A stretch of 22,574 bases of DNA from a bacterium (GTDB lineage: Bacteria; 4484-113; JAGGVC01). Made by a program: the position numbers and the translations under genes. Positions within the stretch are counted from its first letter, which is position 1. Every line of letters begins with the position of its first letter. This document shows, one piece after another, positions 11,716-20,221 of the stretch. Below the pieces are notes generated by a model. It did not search any database, was not told where the DNA came from, and saw only the letters and a program-made list of their open reading frames with translations. The stretch spans positions 1 through 22,574 of the forward strand of contig JAGGVC010000134.1 in the NCBI GenBank assembly GCA_021158185.1. Direction: 5' to 3'.

Positions 11716-11787
11716 TGGGCGTTACTGGATTCGAACCAGTGACTTCATACGTGTGAAGCATGCGCTCTGCCACTGAGCTAAACGCCC
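11716..11787 (-). tRNA. tRNA-Val (anticodon CAC)
   Basis: Reverse complement folds as a cloverleaf: acceptor GGGCGTT/AACGCCC, D-arm GCTC-AGTGGCA-GAGC, anticodon arm CATGC-TTCACAC-GTATG (U33, CAC, A37), T-arm ACTGG-TTCGAAT-CCAGT, discriminator A. No CCA is encoded, and the 3' end is followed by a T6 run. The tracked ORF 11630..11947(-) overlapping it is spurious. Confidence 0.85.
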
Positions 11788-12030: not shown

Positions 12031-13335
12031 ATGTACGAACACTTGAAGGAAGTCGATCCTGAAATCTACCAGGCCGTGGTAGACGAGGCTCACCGCGAGC
12101 ATGCCAAGCTCGAACTCATTGCGAGCGAGAACTTCGTGCCCTACGCGATTCTCGAAGCCATCGGACAGCCGATGCAGAACAAGTACGCGGAAGGTTACCC
12201 CGGCAGGCGTTATTACGGCGGATGCGAGTTCGTGGACGTCGCGGAAAGGCTAGCGCGGAAGCGTGCGAAAAGGCTTTTCGGCTCCGAACATGCAAATGTC
12301 CAGCCTCATTCAGGCGCACAGGCGAACACGGCGGCATATATGGCCTTCTTGAAGGCCGGCGACAAGATTATGGGGATGGATCTTTCACACGGCGGACACC
12401 TGACGCATGGTCATCCTCTCAACTTCAGCGGTATCTACTTCGATGTTGTGAGTTACGGCGTGGATCGCGAAACCGAGCAGATAAATTATTTCGCTCTGGC
12501 GGAGCAGGTTCAGAAGGAAAAGCCGAAGATGCTTGTCGTGGGCGCGAGTGCGTACGCGCGCAAAATAGACTTCGCGAGAACCCGCGAGATCGCAGACAGC
12601 GTTGACGCGTACTTGATGGTCGATATTGCGCACTGGGCGGGGCTTATTGCTGCAGGGCTTTACCCCACGCCCATTCCACACGCTCATGTTACCACTTCAA
12701 CCGTTCACAAGACTCTGCGAGGCCCCAGAAGCGGACTAATCCTCTGCCCGAAGGACTTCAAGAAGCAAGTCGACAAAGCCGTTTTCCCGGGAGTTCAGGG
12801 AGGGCCGATGATGCACGCCATCGCCGCAAAGGCCGTGTGCTTCAAGCTCGCGGCAACAGAAGAGTTCAAGATCTACCAGCAGCAGGTTCTCAACAACGCT
12901 AGAGCTCTTGCGAGTGCGCTTGCAAAGAACGGATTTCGAATCGTTTCCGGTGGAACCGACTGCCACCTGCTTCTAGTGGATGTGAAGAGCAAGGGTCTTA
13001 CGGGCAAGGAAGCGGAAGAAAAGCTCGACAGTGTAGGGATTACCTGTAATAAAAACACGATTCCGTTCGATACCGAAAAGCCATTCATCGCAAGCGGCAT
13101 CAGACTTGGTACGCCCGCACTGACGACACGGGGAATGGGCGTGGATGAAATGGGCGAGATCGCGGATCTGATTGCCGCAGCGCTTATGGCAGGGGATGAT
13201 TCAAGGGAATTGTCTGCGGTGAAGGGAAAGGTAGCTGAGCTTTGCGATAAATTCCTGCTCTACGAGGAAATCTGGAAGGGAGAGGAATTGACTGTAAACA
13301 AGATCGAGGAAGAAGCTGCGAAGACTGTTCGGTAA
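12031..13335 (+). CDS. glyA: Serine hydroxymethyltransferase
   Basis: ATG 12031 with AAGGAGG 8 nt upstream. SHMT signature blocks are [30 protein letters not shown] and [15 protein letters not shown] (PLP-lysine region). Confidence 0.92.
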
Positions 13336-13448
13336 TCCGGCGTTTCTGCCAGGTAAGCATTGAGTCGGCAACTCAGCCGATTAGGTTCGAGTGTTGTTCG
13401 CTCGCGTGAAGGGCGAATGATGGATAAAGGCAATAAGGAGGACTTATT

Positions 13449-14678
13449 ATGGAATGGGCAAACGAGATTTTCTCGGAACGCGCTCTGAACCTGAAGCGCT
13501 CCGAAATCCGTGAGCTTCTCAAACTCACGTCACGTCCTGGAATAATTAGTTTTGCAGGTGGGCTTCCACATCCCGATACGGTCAACAAGGAGGTTATGCT
13601 CAAGCTCGCCGAGCATGTCATTTCGGAGCACAAAAATACAGCTCTTCAGTATGGGCAAACGGAAGGGATACCGGAACTCGTCAAGCAACTCATTCAATTG
13701 CACAAGGAACTTGACGGCATCGATGTTCTTCCAGAGAATATGATCGTGACATCCGCTGCCCAGCAGGCCATCGCACTCACCGCCAAGATATTCCTCGATT
13801 ACGAGGACGAAGTGCTGTGTGCCCGACCGACTTACCTCGGCTTCCTGCAGGCGGTGAGAAGCTATCGGGGCAAGTTCGTTGGCGTTGACCTCGATCCCAG
13901 CGACGGGATTGACGTCGAGCATATCGAGCGCATTTTCAAGGCGCAGGGACGCGGCAGGATCAAGTACCTTTACCTCGTGCCCGACTTCCAGAATCCTGCG
14001 GGTGTGACGCTGTCACTCGAAAAGAGAATTCGCCTTATCGAGCTTGCGCGCGAGTACAGGTTCGCCATCGTCGAGGACAGCCCTTACCGCCAGCTTCGCT
14101 ACACGGGCGAGAACATCCCTTCGATGCTTGCGCTTGACACGGAGCGCAACGTTGTTGTGACGCTCTATACATTCTCGAAGGTGTTCGCACCCGGTCTTCG
14201 ACTCGGATGGGTAACGGGGCCGAAGCAGGTAATCGACAAGCTCACGCTTGTAAAACAGCCTGCGGACCTTTGCACAAGCCCGTTTGCACAGTTCCTTGCC
14301 GCACATTACATCGAAGACGGTCATCTCAGGAATCAGCTTGGCTTCATCGCAGATTTCTACAGGCCGAAGCAGCAGGCGATGATCGAAGCCGTCGAGCGTG
14401 AGCTTGGCGGTATTCCGGGCGTGAGCTTCACGAAGCCAGAGGGCGGAATGTTCCTATGGATTCAGCTTCCAGAGGGCATAGATTCGGGCGAGCTTTTCCA
14501 GGAAACGCTCAAGCGCAACGTGGCATTCGTCGTCGGCTCCGCGTTCGATCCTTACGCAGAGCGCAACAACTGCGCGAGGTTGAATTTCAGCTTCCCGACC
14601 GTGGAGCAGATTCACGAAGGAATGAAGATCCTCGGCGAGTGCGTGAAGGAAATGGTTACGAAAAAGGCGTCGGCGTAA
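13449..14678 (+). CDS. PLP-dependent class I/II aminotransferase (ARO8/LysN-like, COG1167 type)
   Basis: AAGGAGG upstream of ATG 13449. The N-terminal INFAGGLPHPD-like motif (ISFAGGLPHPDT) and the SKVFAPGLRLGW PLP-lysine region are typical of the 2-aminoadipate/aromatic aminotransferase family. Confidence 0.8.
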   Translation: MEWANEIFSERALNLKRSEIRELLKLTSRPGIISFAGGLPHPDTVNKEVMLKLAEHVISEHKNTALQYGQTEGIPELVKQLIQLHKELDGIDVLPENMIVTSAAQQAIALTAKIFLDYEDEVLCARPTYLGFLQAVRSYRGKFVGVDLDPSDGIDVEHIERIFKAQGRGRIKYLYLVPDFQNPAGVTLSLEKRIRLIELAREYRFAIVEDSPYRQLRYTGENIPSMLALDTERNVVVTLYTFSKVFAPGLRLGWVTGPKQVIDKLTLVKQPADLCTSPFAQFLAAHYIEDGHLRNQLGFIADFYRPKQQAMIEAVERELGGIPGVSFTKPEGGMFLWIQLPEGIDSGELFQETLKRNVAFVVGSAFDPYAERNNCARLNFSFPTVEQIHEGMKILGECVKEMVTKKASA

Positions 14679-14688
14679 TCCGCGCGTC

Positions 14689-15231
14689 CTAGCTCTCGCC
14701 GTTGCCGCCGTCATCTTCCGCGGGATGGACGACAATCTCGTACTCCCGTACGACGGCATGGTCGTGGACAGGCGGAATTGGATATCCTGTATCGTATTCA
14801 AGTATTAAACCGCCCCACTCAGGAGAATCTGCCGTTTCCACTAACAAACGGTAGGTGCCAGCGGTAAGCCCGTCATATTCGAATGAAACTTTGTTTACAG
14901 GCGGTTCGGACGACTTTAGGTTCTTATCCAGATTAGTGATCCAGGCCTTCAAATTGAGATCGCTTCCGTATTTGTAGCTGAAGCAATGGAGCTGATTCGG
15001 GGTTAGCCCACGGAGCACCTTTGGTTTGCGCGATGCCGACACTCTAAGTTCAATCGAAAAAGGCTCGAATTCCACGATTTCGTCGGGGATTATTACAGAC
15101 TCCACATACAAGAGCGCAGTATGAGCTATGGGGAAGCCATAGCCGTACTCCCCATTATCCACAATCCCGCAACTGGAAATCGCAGTGCAGCAAAACACGG
15201 CCATCAGCAGAAAGATACTGAAATATCGCAT
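14689..15231 (-). CDS. Hypothetical lipoprotein (180 aa), last gene of the minus-strand operon
   Basis: AGGAGG 6 nt upstream of the ATG (minus strand). Signal peptide MRYFSIFLLMAVFCCTAISSC with lipobox ISS|C. No recognisable domain. It converges on the aminotransferase gene with only 10 nt between stop codons. Confidence 0.6.
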   Translation of the reverse strand: MRYFSIFLLMAVFCCTAISSCGIVDNGEYGYGFPIAHTALLYVESVIIPDEIVEFEPFSIELRVSASRKPKVLRGLTPNQLHCFSYKYGSDLNLKAWITNLDKNLKSSEPPVNKVSFEYDGLTAGTYRLLVETADSPEWGGLILEYDTGYPIPPVHDHAVVREYEIVVHPAEDDGGNGES

Positions 15232-15271
15232 ATCAACCTCCTACCAGGTTGAAAGAGCTTCATAATAATCC

Positions 15272-15277
15272 ATTATA
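15272..15277 (-). promoter_or_regulatory. Possible internal promoter (-10 TATAAT) for the 180-aa lipoprotein gene
   Basis: Minus-strand GGTGGGTATAAT is about 40 nt upstream of ATG 15231, inside a 230-nt intra-operon gap. The -35 is weak. Confidence 0.25.
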
Positions 15278-15463
15278 CCCACCGGCGCGCGCTCGCGGAA
15301 AAAGTGCTCGCAAAATGCTGAGGATTTTCACCGGTTCTGTGTATAGATCAGCATGGCTTCATATCTTTCATCGCGAGTGAGGATGCCCGAATACCTGGCC
15401 ATGGATGCGTAGTCAGGCGAACGTCCGGCTACCCACCATCCAAGCGAAACTATCCAATACGAG

Positions 15464-16651
15464 TCAATCTCCGTATGAAGCACTTTGATTGGGTAAGGGC
15501 TTTATCTGCACAAACTTGGTAAACAAATCTCCTTCCGGAACGACCAGCCTGTCGGTGTTGAGATCATAGATGAGATTTCCACCTATAGCAAATCGGTCAT
15601 CGCCGAGGTTTGCCACATCGCCCATTTCCTGCTTTTCAGGCAAAACATGAATGGACATCCACTCATTGGTCCGCAGATCAAGAACCGCAAGCTTGTCTCC
15701 AAATCCGATTATCGCTACGGCCAGATTGCCGGTTCTGTCGAGGTCGCAAGTGCCGTTTGACAAAAATATCCCGTGCTGATCCAGGTATTCTCTCGGTGGT
15801 TGGGCAATTGCAAATTCTTCGATGGCGAGCTTTGGATGAATGTACACTTTTAGACCTGTTGTATCTGTGGGAGCGTTGGGAGTCCTAAGGCGCGAAGAGC
15901 TGACAGGAGGAGCCATAACGAGCATGATCAACGCTTGTTGTGAGGGTGAGTATACGATCGGCCCGAATAATCGCCTATCCTTCAAGCTATCGATAACCTC
16001 AAAGGAATCACGATCGACAATTGCTATTCCTTCAAACAACCGGATAACGAGCAGATTCCCGCGCTGGCCGCTTATCATTGCCATTACGCTGCCCCATCCG
16101 CCACCGTCATAGGGCAGGGTCAGGCTTTCTCGATATTCCGGGTGTTCAAGAGAGAGCCTCATCAGTTCACTTTCAGTCAGCGAATACTTTAGTAGAACGT
16201 AAAGCCATTTGTCATCCGCAATCACGTTAAAAGGGGAAGGCGGCTTGTCCCCTAGGTCGATTACAAGCGCTTCCTCTGACGGATTAAGCGGGTCAATACG
16301 AACGAGCTTATTCCCCGTAAAATCGAATCGTGAAAGAGGATACCAGATATACCCGTCTGCGGTCACAGCAAAGTCGAACACGGCGGCGAATGAATCGTCG
16401 GTTTCCGGCAAGCGGCAAAAAACCGGTTCGGATCGACCATCCTCGAAAATGGCAAGCGTATGCCACGCGATGCCCACCCAATGCTGGGCCGCTTTGTCTC
16501 CGGGCAATGCTCCCTGCAAGTTGTTGCCGACAATTTCTTTATTTGTCCGATTAGGCTGCCAGCAACTTAACAGCGCGATGGGTGCAAGCAACAACAAAAT
16601 CAAAAACTGGCGTGTGCTTGCCAAATATGCCCTTTTAACTATTCGCTGCAT
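15464..16651 (-). CDS. Hypothetical lipoprotein (395 aa), possibly beta-propeller-like
   Basis: Start ATG at 16651..16649 shares one nucleotide with the TGA stop (16653..16651) of the upstream gene (TGATG coupling). The tracked ORF extends to 16717 through an upstream in-frame start with no signal peptide. From this ATG the signal peptide is MQRIVKRAYLASTRQFLILLLLAPIALLSC with a lipobox. No recognised family. Confidence 0.6.
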   Translation of the reverse strand: MQRIVKRAYLASTRQFLILLLLAPIALLSCWQPNRTNKEIVGNNLQGALPGDKAAQHWVGIAWHTLAIFEDGRSEPVFCRLPETDDSFAAVFDFAVTADGYIWYPLSRFDFTGNKLVRIDPLNPSEEALVIDLGDKPPSPFNVIADDKWLYVLLKYSLTESELMRLSLEHPEYRESLTLPYDGGGWGSVMAMISGQRGNLLVIRLFEGIAIVDRDSFEVIDSLKDRRLFGPIVYSPSQQALIMLVMAPPVSSSRLRTPNAPTDTTGLKVYIHPKLAIEEFAIAQPPREYLDQHGIFLSNGTCDLDRTGNLAVAIIGFGDKLAVLDLRTNEWMSIHVLPEKQEMGDVANLGDDRFAIGGNLIYDLNTDRLVVPEGDLFTKFVQIKPLPNQSASYGD

Positions 16652-18390
16652 CAATAATCCCACCACCACCACAAGTAGCTCCACTGATACAAGTATATGT
16701 CCCCTGGCGTCACCCAAAATCCACCGTCCACATCTATATCTTCAGAATACCAGTACGGGTTGAAATATGCTCCACCCCACCATCCGACCCACGCAAGTTG
16801 AGAGCAGTAATGCTCGTTAAAATCATCCTTTTGCACACCTAAATTGTATGTCTGGCCTACAGTCCAATCGAAAAAGGTCATTAGCTGGTCAAGTACACCT
16901 GGACAAATCATTTGATCAGCGTGGTATATCCAAATTTCCCAAGTGCACCTAATAGCCCGAATATCCCGGTTGTAGACCCAGTTTCTTGCATATGGTATTC
17001 GCTGCACACCTTGTCCAAAGCCGATTGCTTCGACCGTTTCCGCATAGGTCCAGTACTGTGAATACGTGTCCGTGGCTACAATACCGGTATGGTGCCAACC
17101 GTATGGCCACAACCACTCAGGGACCCATGTGAGTGGATTTTCGAAGTTCTGTTCGTAATTCGCCGTCAAAATGTCTCCACGAAAGAAACATTGAGGAAAT
17201 GCGCTGTAATTGGTTGGGCCAACCGGGTTGGGCGAGTTACCTCCGTACGGATAATACTGGCTCGGAAGCCTGCCAGCGAAGTAGTCCTCAAAGAACTTTT
17301 TCCACCAATTTGGAAGCCAGAACGATGGCTCACGTTCGAGCAAGGGAGTCATGGGCTCGCTGCTTCCAGCTTCACGCCGAAACTTGTTTTCAATGGCTTG
17401 CGCTTTTATGTCGTATATAGGTTGCTCAAGATCAATGCCTTCCAAATCTAGAGGGTTTATATTCCAATCCTCGATATCCAGAATATATGCATCGTAATAG
17501 ACCTGTCCCGTAGGCATTGCAATGCAGGGGTTCACGCTCTCACCAAGGATTGTTTCTGCCACTTCTGGAGTCAACCAGACCGCTGTACCAGGCTCCTCGT
17601 GAGAGATGGGCTCGCCCCTCATGTAGTATGACCCGTCGGACTTTTGCAGCAGGGGCACCATTTGGTTTGCTAGGTCTTCTCGAGAGTGAAAGCTGGAGCT
17701 TTCAATATCAATAAATTCTCCCGAGACGGTTGACGTCGTAATCACCAGTTCACCCTCGAACCCTACTGCGGCGACCAGATGGCGCTCCGACTCGCCGATA
17801 ACATCGGGGGAATCCTCAATTACGCTTGGAAGAAGGAAATATACTGTTCGTCTCCCGGTTTCCGGATCGGTGAAAGTTGTGTCAATCTGTTCATTCGCCT
17901 GTTGGGGAGATATAACGTGGTAGCCAAGCAAAAGCTCAAGCTGATTCTGCTGTTCATCCAGCGCTTGATAAGCAACCTCAAATTCAGGGTCAGGCAACTG
18001 ATGCCCTTGATCATCTTCATAGATGTACTCGAAGTAACCGATCACGTATCCGGTGTTGCCTTGGAATTCAACAACATGGGAACTACCGAATGTTAAGTCT
18101 GTAAGGCAGGGCGTGAATATCTCGGTCACGGGATCCAGAATTAAAGGCAGTTCAGTGTAATAAAGGCCCACGATCCAAGGCGAATACACACTCACGGTTC
18201 CTCCATTGTACTCGACCTCGACGACAGGCGTATCACTAAGGCCGCCAGCTAGCGGGTACTCCCCTCCTCCAATTCCCGGATCAAAACCGGGGCTGTTACT
18301 GGGCAATCTAAAAGGACCAAGTTGAGTCCTGTCAACTGGTACCGACCCGTCGCGTTCCAAGTCACCGGTTTGCGGTTTGTCCGGATTCAA
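16651..18390 (-). CDS. Protein with C-terminal YiiX/YaeF-like permuted papain-fold (C92, NlpC/P60 superfamily) domain and an acidic N-terminal region of unknown function; 5' end unresolved
   Basis: The C-terminus carries WHHTGIV (His block) about 95 residues before EHYCSQLAWVGWW (Cys block). This matches the permuted His...Cys order and the SHTGM / YCSEVVW motifs of E. coli YiiX. The C-terminal tail is W/Y-rich (YLYQWSYLWWWWDY). The tracked start is TTG 18390, but the frame stays open to 18537 and the only strong SD+ATG (18536) is in the +1 frame. Confidence 0.6.
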   Translation of the reverse strand: MNPDKPQTGDLERDGSVPVDRTQLGPFRLPSNSPGFDPGIGGGEYPLAGGLSDTPVVEVEYNGGTVSVYSPWIVGLYYTELPLILDPVTEIFTPCLTDLTFGSSHVVEFQGNTGYVIGYFEYIYEDDQGHQLPDPEFEVAYQALDEQQNQLELLLGYHVISPQQANEQIDTTFTDPETGRRTVYFLLPSVIEDSPDVIGESERHLVAAVGFEGELVITTSTVSGEFIDIESSSFHSREDLANQMVPLLQKSDGSYYMRGEPISHEEPGTAVWLTPEVAETILGESVNPCIAMPTGQVYYDAYILDIEDWNINPLDLEGIDLEQPIYDIKAQAIENKFRREAGSSEPMTPLLEREPSFWLPNWWKKFFEDYFAGRLPSQYYPYGGNSPNPVGPTNYSAFPQCFFRGDILTANYEQNFENPLTWVPEWLWPYGWHHTGIVATDTYSQYWTYAETVEAIGFGQGVQRIPYARNWVYNRDIRAIRCTWEIWIYHADQMICPGVLDQLMTFFDWTVGQTYNLGVQKDDFNEHYCSQLAWVGWWGGAYFNPYWYSEDIDVDGGFWVTPGDIYLYQWSYLWWWWDY

Positions 18391-18626
18391 ACCGGCATCT
18401 TGCGGTGCATCGCCGCCGTAGCCCTCACTCAGCGAAGCATTGGCGCTTGCATCCTGCGAGGGATAAAGGGGACTTGAATCATTGCTGCAACCGGTGAAGC
18501 TGTTCTCTTCACAATCTCTGAAAAATGATATTCCATCTTACTTCCCTCCACGTAAATTCCTCTACAGGCGATATTCGTATCGAATCCCATAGCCTGCGAC
18601 ACTCACGGTATTATTCCAGCATCTTT

Positions 18627-18655
18627 ATTATATCGGAAATCTCCCCGAATTTCAA
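18627..18655 (-). promoter_or_regulatory. Consensus sigma70 promoter TTGAAA-17-TATAAT for the YiiX-like operon
   Basis: Minus strand reads TTGAAA (18655..18650), a 17-nt spacer, then TATAAT (18632..18627). It lies about 90 nt upstream of the SD GGAGGG (18549..18544) and ATG 18536. Confidence 0.55.
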
Positions 18656-18819: not shown

Positions 18820-19701
18820 ATGCTTTATTCGGTTTCGGAATCAAGGCTCGATTTCATTCTGGACAGCGTCGTTGGCAGGGATAGTCCCGTGCATTTCAGC
18901 CTGAAATCCTGGGCGACCATCAGCCATCCGGATGTGCCGCGCCCCGCGGTTCTCACAGATAACCTCGAGAATCCGTCAGTCGTTATCCTTTGCGGAGTTG
19001 ACTGGATGACCGGCTGGACAAAGGACGACGATCTGTGGCTGAAGGTGTTCCGCGACGTTCTGATGGGCGAAGGCGAATTCCCGCGCGGGTTTCCTTCCCC
19101 AGGCGGATGGCGCGGAGGTTCGGTGTCGATGTCCGCGGTTGTGCGCCGCCCGTACCTGTTTCTCGGCCAGGTTCCTTCAGCGATGACCAGGGGTGCGCTT
19201 GAAGCTGGATTCATCGCCGAAGAAGACGATATACAAATCGAGCCCGCCGCCGAGTTCTGGTATCTTGAGGGCGAGCCAAGGTTTTCTGAGCATGTAAAAC
19301 ACCCCTGCCGCGTATGCGAAGGGCTTGGACTATTCGAGCTGATCCGCGCCGGATGGCCGTACGGCGACGCGGAAGGCACATACATTAAAGAGTGCTTGCT
19401 CACCGGGCCGAGCTTTGTTTGCGAGGTGGACGGCGAGCCGGTTTGTGCGAGCGCTACGCATCTTTCACGAACGATGGGGATGATCTACACGCCTGAGGAG
19501 CTTCGGGGCAGAGGCTATGCGTCGAGTCTTGCCGCGTTTCAGGTTGACGAAATGCTCAGGCGCGACGGAATTGCGTCGGCACATATCTGGCATTCGAACG
19601 AGCCCAGCAGGGCACTTGTGAAAAAGCTGGGTTTTGAGAGATTTGCGGGATGGTTTGGATGGTATCGGCTCTTCTTTCCGGAAACACAATTCCTGCCTTA
19701 G
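18820..19701 (+). CDS. GNAT-family N-acetyltransferase (FR47-like C-terminal domain)
   Basis: The C-terminal region CASATHLSRTMGMIYTPEELRGRGYASSLAAFQVDEMLRRDG...KKLGFE has the acetyl-CoA-binding R/Q-x-x-G-x-G/A motif of GNAT enzymes. The start is uncertain: ATG 18820 overlaps a promoter-like TTGATA-16-TATGCT, and in-frame ATG 19006 has GGAG 8 nt upstream. Confidence 0.55.
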   Translation: MLYSVSESRLDFILDSVVGRDSPVHFSLKSWATISHPDVPRPAVLTDNLENPSVVILCGVDWMTGWTKDDDLWLKVFRDVLMGEGEFPRGFPSPGGWRGGSVSMSAVVRRPYLFLGQVPSAMTRGALEAGFIAEEDDIQIEPAAEFWYLEGEPRFSEHVKHPCRVCEGLGLFELIRAGWPYGDAEGTYIKECLLTGPSFVCEVDGEPVCASATHLSRTMGMIYTPEELRGRGYASSLAAFQVDEMLRRDGIASAHIWHSNEPSRALVKKLGFERFAGWFGWYRLFFPETQFLP

Positions 19702-20127: not shown

Positions 20128-20221
20128 GCGGCGGTTGATGGGGTCCGGTGGCCCCCGCGGTCTTCAAAACCGTTGGCGCGGGAGATCCCCGCGCGGGAGG
20201 TTCGACTCCTCCCTCCGCCGT
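20128..20221 (+). tRNA. selC: Candidate selenocysteine tRNA (tRNA-Sec, anticodon UCA), selC-like
   Basis: 6-bp D-stem GGGGTC/GGCCCC with 4-nt loop CGGT (20140-20155). Anticodon arm GCGGT-CUUCAAA-ACCGT has U33, UCA and A37 (20157-20173). A long variable arm forms a 7-bp stem (20176-20194). T-arm is GGAGG-TTCGACT-CCTCC (20196-20212). The anticodon loop, D-loop and GGTTCGACTCC T-arm are identical to E. coli selC as recalled. The acceptor is imperfect (GCGGCGG/CCGCCGT, 7 bp including G-U) and the acceptor-to-D linker is 4 nt, not 2. TATAAT at 20116-20121 places +1 at the predicted 5' end. Confidence 0.5.

Follow-up and report, generated by a model that had tools for sequence, protein, structure and literature searches.

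A rare gene pair encoding a divergent YiiX-like protein and a beta-propeller lipoprotein in uncultured bacteria of hydrothermal sediment

What is the conserved unit in a locus where three co-directional genes follow one promoter-like site, and what could its products do in the cell? This question was raised by positions 14,689 to 18,655 of contig JAGGVC010000134.1, a complete contig of 22,574 nucleotides (hereafter the window) from an NCBI metagenome-assembled genome (MAG), in which the locus carries the tags J7K50_09990/09995. A sequence-only reading had described the locus as a three-gene operon, in which an enzyme with a YiiX/C92-like permuted papain-fold domain is followed by two lipoproteins. 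The homologous loci indicate that only genes 1 and 2 belong to the conserved unit, and we consider it about an even call that these two genes form an envelope module, in which a YiiX-like acyl hydrolase or transferase would act on lipid-linked substrates with a propeller lipoprotein as its partner. The features of the locus are as follows.

16651..18390, minus strand: gene 1 (J7K50_09995), 579 aa from a TTG start, multidomain product of a very rare lipoprotein family
15464..16651, minus strand: gene 2, 395 aa counted from its ATG, lipoprotein with a 7-bladed YncE/YVTN-like beta-propeller
14689..15231, minus strand: gene 3, 180 aa, small lipoprotein (…AISS followed by C21)
18627..18655, minus strand: candidate sigma-70-like promoter, TTGAAA-17 nt-TATAAT, between gene 1 and a divergent GNAT gene

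Most of the layout in the sequence-only reading was confirmed. The three minus-strand frames are in the open reading frame (ORF) list at these coordinates and lengths, and the TGA of gene 1 and the ATG of gene 2 overlap by one base (TGATG, in the context ...TATTGATGCAG). The strong promoter reported at 18655..18627 is present as a site matching 11/12 consensus positions, and the window contains 2 promoter-like sites with at most one mismatch, as compared with 0.07 expected from shuffles; the site is predicted to act as the promoter of genes 1 and 2. The locus also lies, as was described, in a stretch of lower GC content, which was found to be 0.49–0.50 for genes 1, 2 and 3 against 0.54–0.57 for the neighbouring genes. 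Two ENA assemblies, L004 and L005, which derive from hydrothermal-sediment samples of Auka, contain the same locus. Scans of Pfam, NCBIfam, PADLOC and PHROGs with the proteins of genes 1–3 gave no usable match.

Genes 1 and 2 are conserved as a pair

A gene 2 homologue was found immediately downstream of every full-length gene 1 homologue for which the 3' flank is available. In six lineages besides that of the window, the two genes are adjacent and always co-directional, and the distance between them varies from an overlap of 19 nt to a gap of 51 nt. The loci of the pair, as summarised by tblastn, are grouped by lineage as follows.

Pair lineage: L001
Pair lineage: L002 / L009 / L019
Pair lineage: L003 / L010
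Pair lineage: L011 / L012
Pair lineage: L014, with 35%/34% identity for genes 1/2 (hhalign E=2.3e-52)

Because the genes flanking the pair differ in every lineage, the pair is a self-contained module. A conserved third partner was rejected on the same difference of the flanks among lineages. No counterpart of gene 3, which lies 232 nt downstream of gene 2 in the window, was found next to the pair in the loci of the other lineages. The neighbourhood conservation looked for in relatives was therefore confirmed for the linkage of genes 1 and 2 but failed for gene 3, and these loci indicate that the three genes are not one conserved module, contrary to what had been proposed.

The family is rare. 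Gene 1 has 3 homologues at ~50% identity among 5.8 billion clustered proteins, one species representative carried the family in a scan of a genome collection, and a metagenome scan added one further pair. The homologues are mostly hydrothermal or sediment environmental sequences, and most of these are without taxonomic assignment.

The gene 2 product has a hydrophobic signal peptide, MQRIVKRAYLASTRQFLILLLLAPIALLS followed by C30 (MQRIVKR...FLILLLLAPIALLS followed by C30; Kyte-Doolittle maximum 3.07), and its lipobox reads ...IALLS before C30; its homologues likewise have a signal and a lipobox. The lipoprotein calls made here were judged by eye and hydropathy, and they agree with the earlier assignment of the gene 2 and gene 3 products as lipoproteins. 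None of the three proteins had been thought to match a family that can be named beyond the catalytic domain. This does not hold for gene 2, the product of which is a recognisable 7-bladed beta-propeller of YncE/YVTN-like type, with no Pfam or NCBIfam match (repeat models) at E<=1. Between lineages, the propeller varies in its middle but hardly at all in its N-terminal half. When compared with YncE of E. coli (3vgz) and BtuG of Bacteroides (8ptf/8blw), gene 2 showed 9–13% sequence identity with no Pfam match, and it matches these two no better than many other 7-bladed propellers, so the likeness gives a fold class and not a family assignment.

A divergent YiiX-like domain and the proposed role of the pair

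The gene 1 product can be divided into the following parts, in which the residues of the predicted catalytic tetrad are given with their counterparts in E. coli YiiX.

17371..18234, minus strand: N-terminal beta-rich domain (~aa 53–340, ~290 residues), mostly beta in the AlphaFold2 (AF2) model, with a predicted local distance difference test (pLDDT) score of ~55–80
17182..17370, minus strand: linker (~aa 341–403), an aromatic, possibly amphipathic segment FWLPNWWKKFFEDYF and then a Gly/Pro-rich spacer
16654..17181, minus strand: C-terminal permuted NlpC/P60 (YaeF/YiiX, Peptidase_C92-like) domain with a Trp-rich tail (...YLWWWWDY), predicted from profile homology and the tetrad
17089-17091, minus strand: catalytic His434, motif WHHTG, corresponding to YiiX His49
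17029-17031, minus strand: catalytic Glu454, motif ETVEA, corresponding to YiiX Glu64
16846-16848, minus strand: catalytic Tyr515, motif GQTYN, corresponding to YiiX Tyr115
16804-16806, minus strand: catalytic Cys529, motif HYCSQ, corresponding to YiiX Cys128

In gene 1, the block WHHTGIV (His433/434) precedes HYCSQLAW (Cys529), which is the permuted order, His before Cys, that had been read from the sequence. The tetrad His434/Glu454/Tyr515/Cys529 was found to be invariant in the alignment (6/6 family members), and the corresponding catalytic residues of YiiX are His49/Glu64/Tyr115/Cys128 (Xu et al., PMC3142127). The domain was assessed by profile searches, among them the search of the C-terminal domain with PF05708 that had been suggested. 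The full-length gene 1 product gave no Pfam or NCBIfam match at E<=1. PF05708 matched the isolated C-terminal domain with E=0.11 and 13 bits, below the Pfam gathering threshold of 27 bits; the best family member gave E=6.4e-4, and the homologue P0007 gave 0.0045 with 17.5 bits.

This shortfall was made good by transitive profiles. A profile of the gene 1 family searched against 1.84 billion representatives returned 11 matches, which include P0014 (E=1.5e-4) and P0016 (4.8e-4), and both of these are bona fide Peptidase_C92 proteins (PF05708 at 1.7e-11 with 44.9 bits and 8.4e-16 with 58.9 bits, respectively). The profile built from family C-domains only (A7; six family C-domains) matched P0016 with an hhalign probability of 98% and E=1.5e-13. 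When P0014 and P0016 were included in the C-domain profile, the best match among PDB sequences was E. coli YiiX (2if6, E=0.004), with the His, Glu, Tyr and Cys residues aligned. The absence of a PF05708 match, which had been named as refuting the domain call, is thus a borderline case in formal terms. The YiiX/C92 call stands because of this transitive evidence and the catalytic residues, and not through a threshold-passing Pfam match; the profiles place the C-terminal part of gene 1 as a divergent YaeF/YiiX (C92) permuted NlpC/P60 domain below the Pfam cut-off. The gene 1 product is also acidic (pI 4.1), and its last 200 residues contain 9.5% Trp and 10.4% Tyr, in agreement with the acidic character and W/Y-rich tail described before.

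Bacterial YaeF/YiiX-type permuted NlpC/P60 enzymes are widespread, and their physiological substrates are mostly unknown. Gene 1 shows the same His...Glu...Tyr...Cys order as the YaeF/YiiX proteins (PF05708; E. coli YiiX 2if6 and B. cereus BcPPNE 3kw0) with similar spacing, and it has in common with them G.PY around the Tyr, YCS.L around the Cys and a C-terminal D.D.NGG..VTP.DI block. It differs from them in its sub-threshold score, in its inserts and in the extreme Trp and Tyr content of its surface and tail. YiiX and BcPPNE each consist of one domain of ~190 aa, whereas gene 1 is multidomain, with the catalytic part fused to the ~290-residue N-terminal domain, and it is always paired with a propeller lipoprotein. 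The new elements are the very divergent C92-type enzyme, the undescribed architecture and the obligate propeller partner; the kind of enzyme is already known.

The N-terminal part of gene 1 had been left unrecognised, and this was borne out for aa ~53–340. No relatives of this domain were detected in Pfam, NCBIfam, PDB sequences (profile search), PHROGs or PADLOC, and structure comparison of its model returned generic immunoglobulin-like sandwiches only. These searches mark it as a novel, previously uncharacterised domain of ~290 residues, which occurs fused or stand-alone. The stand-alone form was found in P0009 and P0010, which are complete proteins with an N-terminal membrane anchor. Both end just past an aromatic MW(F/Y)..F.GG segment that corresponds to FWLPNWWKKFF of gene 1, and in the alignment of the fused proteins this segment leads into the Gly/Pro-rich linker (GGGNGGGNPPP in relatives) and then into the catalytic domain.

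The gene for P0010 (L015:8001-9296) closes a run of three genes in the same orientation, with products of 441 aa, 425 aa (faint tetratricopeptide repeat (TPR) matches) and 431 aa, and it lies near pilM/pilN and a glycosyltransferase gene, without a propeller neighbour. Its neighbours were tried as propeller homologues and rejected (hhalign probability ~0.1%). As a single example, P0010 without such a neighbour gives a hint that the propeller is tied to the catalytic half of gene 1.

The proposed role of the pair was drawn by analogy with YiiX/BcPPNE, LRAT/PLAAT, Tox-Act1/TseH and LnsA. YiiX and BcPPNE have a hydrophobic S1 pocket, YiiX was crystallised with a fatty acid, and cleavage of fatty-acyl-amino-acid amides was proposed for permuted enzymes of this type, many of which carry a fused lipoprotein signal (PMC3142127). 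Among the other analogues, Tox-Act1 and TseH act as phospholipases (PMC12994826), and LnsA works with a second protein in lipoprotein N-acylation (PMC7387801). With Tox-Act1/TseH, gene 1 has the permuted catalytic core and an adjacent envelope partner gene in common, and their lipid activity is the most direct biochemical precedent. The LnsA-LnsB system of Staphylococcus aureus gives a two-component precedent for acyl transfer, in which the YiiX-like LnsA needs a second protein for a lipid-modified envelope substrate. However, LnsB is a polytopic membrane protein and not a propeller, the two genes are non-contiguous and the organisms are monoderm; the likeness to the pair is drawn at the superfamily level.

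The near-consensus promoter at 18655-18627 probably drives transcription of the pair, and the TGATG overlap probably couples the translation of its two genes. Proteins of the gene 1 family consist, in order, of a lipid anchor with a flexible tether, the novel beta-rich domain, the aromatic segment with its Gly-rich linker, the permuted NlpC/P60 domain and the Trp-rich tail. By the analogy above, Cys529, activated by His434 and Glu454, would attack an acyl-chain carbonyl in a substrate associated with the membrane, for which a phospholipid, an N-acyl peptide or a lipoprotein N-terminus are the candidates, and the resulting thioester intermediate would be resolved by hydrolysis or acyl transfer. 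The aromatic linker segment and the Trp-rich tail suggest a location at the membrane interface. More speculatively, the co-anchored propeller may bind the enzyme or its substrate, so as to present, position or restrain it. Among the functions that had been suggested for the locus, the lipid-amidase option fits the published permuted NlpC/P60 enzymes best, and cell-wall remodelling and an effector/immunity role are less well supported.

A more specific form of this proposal is quite improbable, namely that the pair is an undescribed candidate-phylum system that remodels acyl chains on envelope lipids or lipoprotein N-termini, with the N-terminal domain and the propeller selecting the substrate. 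Such a system could work as a counterpart of LnsAB in diderms, anchored through lipoproteins, or as a deacylase/transacylase of outer-membrane lipids. An enzyme of this type that carries a new accessory domain, and whose gene always comes with one for a propeller lipoprotein, offers a defined two-protein system for the study of substrate choice, and the ~290-residue domain is an addition to the catalogue of uncharacterised domains. The practical impact is limited, as the family is tiny and environmental and the copy in the window may be defective.

The start of gene 1 and alternative explanations

All the full-length gene 1 homologues begin with a lipoprotein signal (LASCG, LASCS or AASCG, and LLCSCG in L014). 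The region 5' of the gene in the window was examined for such a signal, and it contains two features.

18391..18537, minus strand: in-frame open stretch 5' of the gene 1 TTG, reading DGISFFRDCEENSFTGC followed by SNDSSPLYPSQDASANASLSEGYGGDAPQDAG, with a lipobox-like FTGC and a Ser/Asp/Pro-rich tether, bounded by the TAA at 18538-18540
18429..18536, minus strand: 35-codon upstream ORF (MEYHFSEIVKRTASPVAAMIQVPFIPRRMQAPMLR and a stop codon), in a frame other than that of gene 1, its ATG preceded at 7 nt by GGAGGG

The frame of gene 1 is open for 49 codons upstream of the annotated TTG and reads ...SFTGC followed by SNDSSPLYPSQDAS...; given as ...SFTGC followed by SNDSSPLYPSQDASANAS...., it shows a lipobox-like motif and a typical Ser/Asp/Pro-rich tether. 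This stretch is probably the remnant of the lipoprotein signal and tether of the family, and the 35-codon frame may serve as a leader ORF or have arisen through the 5' lesion. Neither a start codon nor a hydrophobic core was found upstream of the TTG in any of the three frames. The 5' sequence of gene 1 does not differ between the NCBI contig and two ENA assemblies, and because of this agreement the lesion appears to be real and not an assembly artefact. We rejected the idea that a simple frameshift or an error of assembly conceals a signal peptide, as there is no hydrophobic core in the three frames, no canonical slippery heptamer was seen by eye in the overlap and the three assemblies agree. 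A riboswitch or structured leader was also rejected (fold z = 0.30, no Rfam match). Gene 1 is accordingly read as a member of a lipoprotein family whose signal peptide appears to have been lost in the window copy, a point that was absent from the sequence-only reading.

Several observations weigh against the proposal of an envelope acyl-enzyme module. The gene 1 product has no signal peptide (Kyte-Doolittle maximum 0.15) and no Shine-Dalgarno sequence was found before its TTG (18390). Because the signal peptide has been lost, export of the product is doubtful here; it may not reach the envelope, or gene 1 may be decaying. No match of the gene 1 family reaches the PF05708 threshold, and the family-only C-domain profile gave no match among PDB sequences. 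The AF2 model of the catalytic domain has a pLDDT below 50, so that the papain fold and any hydrophobic pocket are putative. There are ~10 family members in total, which makes the conservation statistics thin. Finally, while the structure of the genes, their homology, the catalytic residues, the propeller fold and the conservation of the pair were shown, we infer the co-transcription of genes 1 and 2, the physical interaction of their products, the class of the substrate and the direction of the reaction.

Decay of the window copy is unlikely but deserves real weight. According to this explanation, gene 1 is non-exported or decaying, and the 5' lesion that took its signal peptide has left the module non-functional in this genome. 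Ahead of the lipobox-like FTGC there is a stop codon, and no frame supplies a start codon or a hydrophobic core; the TTG is without a Shine-Dalgarno sequence while the good GGAGGG serves the out-of-frame 35-codon ORF, the lesion is identical in the three assemblies, and the signals are intact in all homologues. On the other hand, the 579-codon frame is intact and has lost none of the catalytic or otherwise invariant residues, the site upstream is a strong promoter-like one, and gene 2, itself intact, remains coupled to gene 1. Furthermore, reads from one and the same site may underlie all three assemblies, which leaves some room for a systematic error.

A cell-wall role was judged to be improbable. 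Here gene 1 would be a peptidoglycan peptide amidase or endopeptidase of the kind known from canonical NlpC/P60 enzymes, with the propeller lipoprotein as its regulator or scaffold, much as other envelope hydrolases have lipoprotein regulators. The placement of the domain in the NlpC/P60 superfamily, the envelope lipoprotein nature of both family proteins and a novel N-terminal beta domain that could bind the wall are consistent with it. However, His434 comes before Cys529, as against the canonical Cys-before-His order, and the published permuted members act on lipids or acyl chains and not on peptidoglycan. Moreover, no LysM, SH3b, peptidoglycan-binding or other wall-binding Pfam domain was found in gene 1; canonical NlpC/P60 endopeptidases usually carry accessory domains of this kind.

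A toxin-immunity pair is very improbable. Gene 1 would then act, as Tox-Act1/TseH do, as an antibacterial effector against lipids, and the gene 2 lipoprotein would confer immunity to it in the periplasm. Permuted NlpC/P60 effectors that are paired with membrane-associated immunity proteins are known (PMC12994826); in the window, the genes are tightly coupled in enzyme-then-partner order with a GC content below that of the surroundings, and the gene 1 family is sporadic and rare. The gene 1 homologues are themselves lipoproteins, which points to resident and not secreted proteins, and they are collinear over their full length without swapping of C-terminal domains. Typical immunity genes are small and fast-evolving, whereas the gene 2 partner is ~390 aa long and as conserved as the enzyme, with its nearly invariant N-terminal half. 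No type VI secretion system (T6SS), type VII secretion system, contact-dependent inhibition, Rhs or PAAR genes were found near the pair (0/8 loci), and PADLOC gave no match. Tox-Act1 and TseH are T6SS-secreted, occur in conflict contexts and have small immunity proteins, in contrast to the lipoprotein enzyme and large conserved propeller of the gene 1 family, which show no linkage to a secretion system.

Gene 3, hosts and neighbouring features

That the three genes form one operon whose products work together is very unlikely: they are co-directional behind one strong promoter-like site, no intrinsic terminator was predicted in the 232-nt gap between genes 2 and 3 and all three products are envelope proteins, but gene 3 stands apart with its own ribosome-binding site, does not follow the pair in other lineages, duplicates (at 92% identity) a gene located elsewhere in the same MAG and belongs to a family partnered with Peptidase_S8 genes. 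Read-through transcription from the pair into gene 3 is possible.

The gene 3 product has the signal MRYFSIFLLMAVFCCTAISS followed by C21 (Kyte-Doolittle maximum 2.74), and AGGAGG stands 5 nt before its ATG, in keeping with the strong Shine-Dalgarno sequence described for it. Its close relatives are only the copies of the same locus in L004/L005 and J7K50_06820, the 92%-identical paralogue, and the DNA identity with the latter extends from ~50 nt 5' of the ATG to ~10 nt past the stop. More distant members of the family (26–35% identity) form tandem pairs directly 3' of Peptidase_S8 genes in L006/L007 and in the MAG AUK046. Because of this paralogue in the same MAG and the position of the family behind Peptidase_S8 genes, gene 3 is a recent lone duplicate from a subtilase-associated lipoprotein family, and its sequence relationships mark it as a neighbour unrelated to the pair. 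The members of the family may be partners, inhibitors or substrates of subtilases. Such tandem pairs of lipoproteins (MR...SCG) were located at L006:4810-6991 and L009:12979-16365, which are two independent loci.

One of the carriers, MAG AUK046 (L009/L013), is assigned to p__UBP7_A; c__4484-113 in GTDB, and its source is sediment of the Auka vents, Pescadero Basin (PMC9213671 supplement). A secretin gene near the pair in L014 suggests a diderm envelope. Large guanylate-cyclase/AAA/TPR proteins were found at variable distance in L006:13831-16991, L009:1170-4181 and L014:3598-6432. Of these contigs, L009 and L014 carry the pair and L006 carries the gene 3 paralogue, and the large proteins are probably a trait of the lineage and not a part of the module.

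The neighbour on the other side of the promoter-like site was also confirmed as the divergent GNAT gene that had been noticed.

18820..19701: GNAT gene, divergent from gene 1, with Pfam matches to FR47 (1.6e-9) and Acetyltransf_1 (8e-6)

In addition, the window contains a selenocysteine tRNA at 20130-20219 (+), beside a Peptidase_S9 gene (Rfam RF01852, 70.7 bits), and an ordinary tRNA at 11716-11787 (-). On the longer ENA contig that spans this locus, a fragment of an IS1595-type transposase was seen at L004:2531-3021, ~4 kb beyond the GNAT/S9 genes and outside the gene 1–gene 2 module. In L001, the 23S rRNA gene of a related organism (13242-16883, minus strand) spans 3642 nt, as compared with a model length of 2925, and an ORF with a LAGLIDADG-like N-terminal sequence, recognised by eye, lies within that span at 14247-14726 (-); it may encode an intron-borne homing endonuclease.

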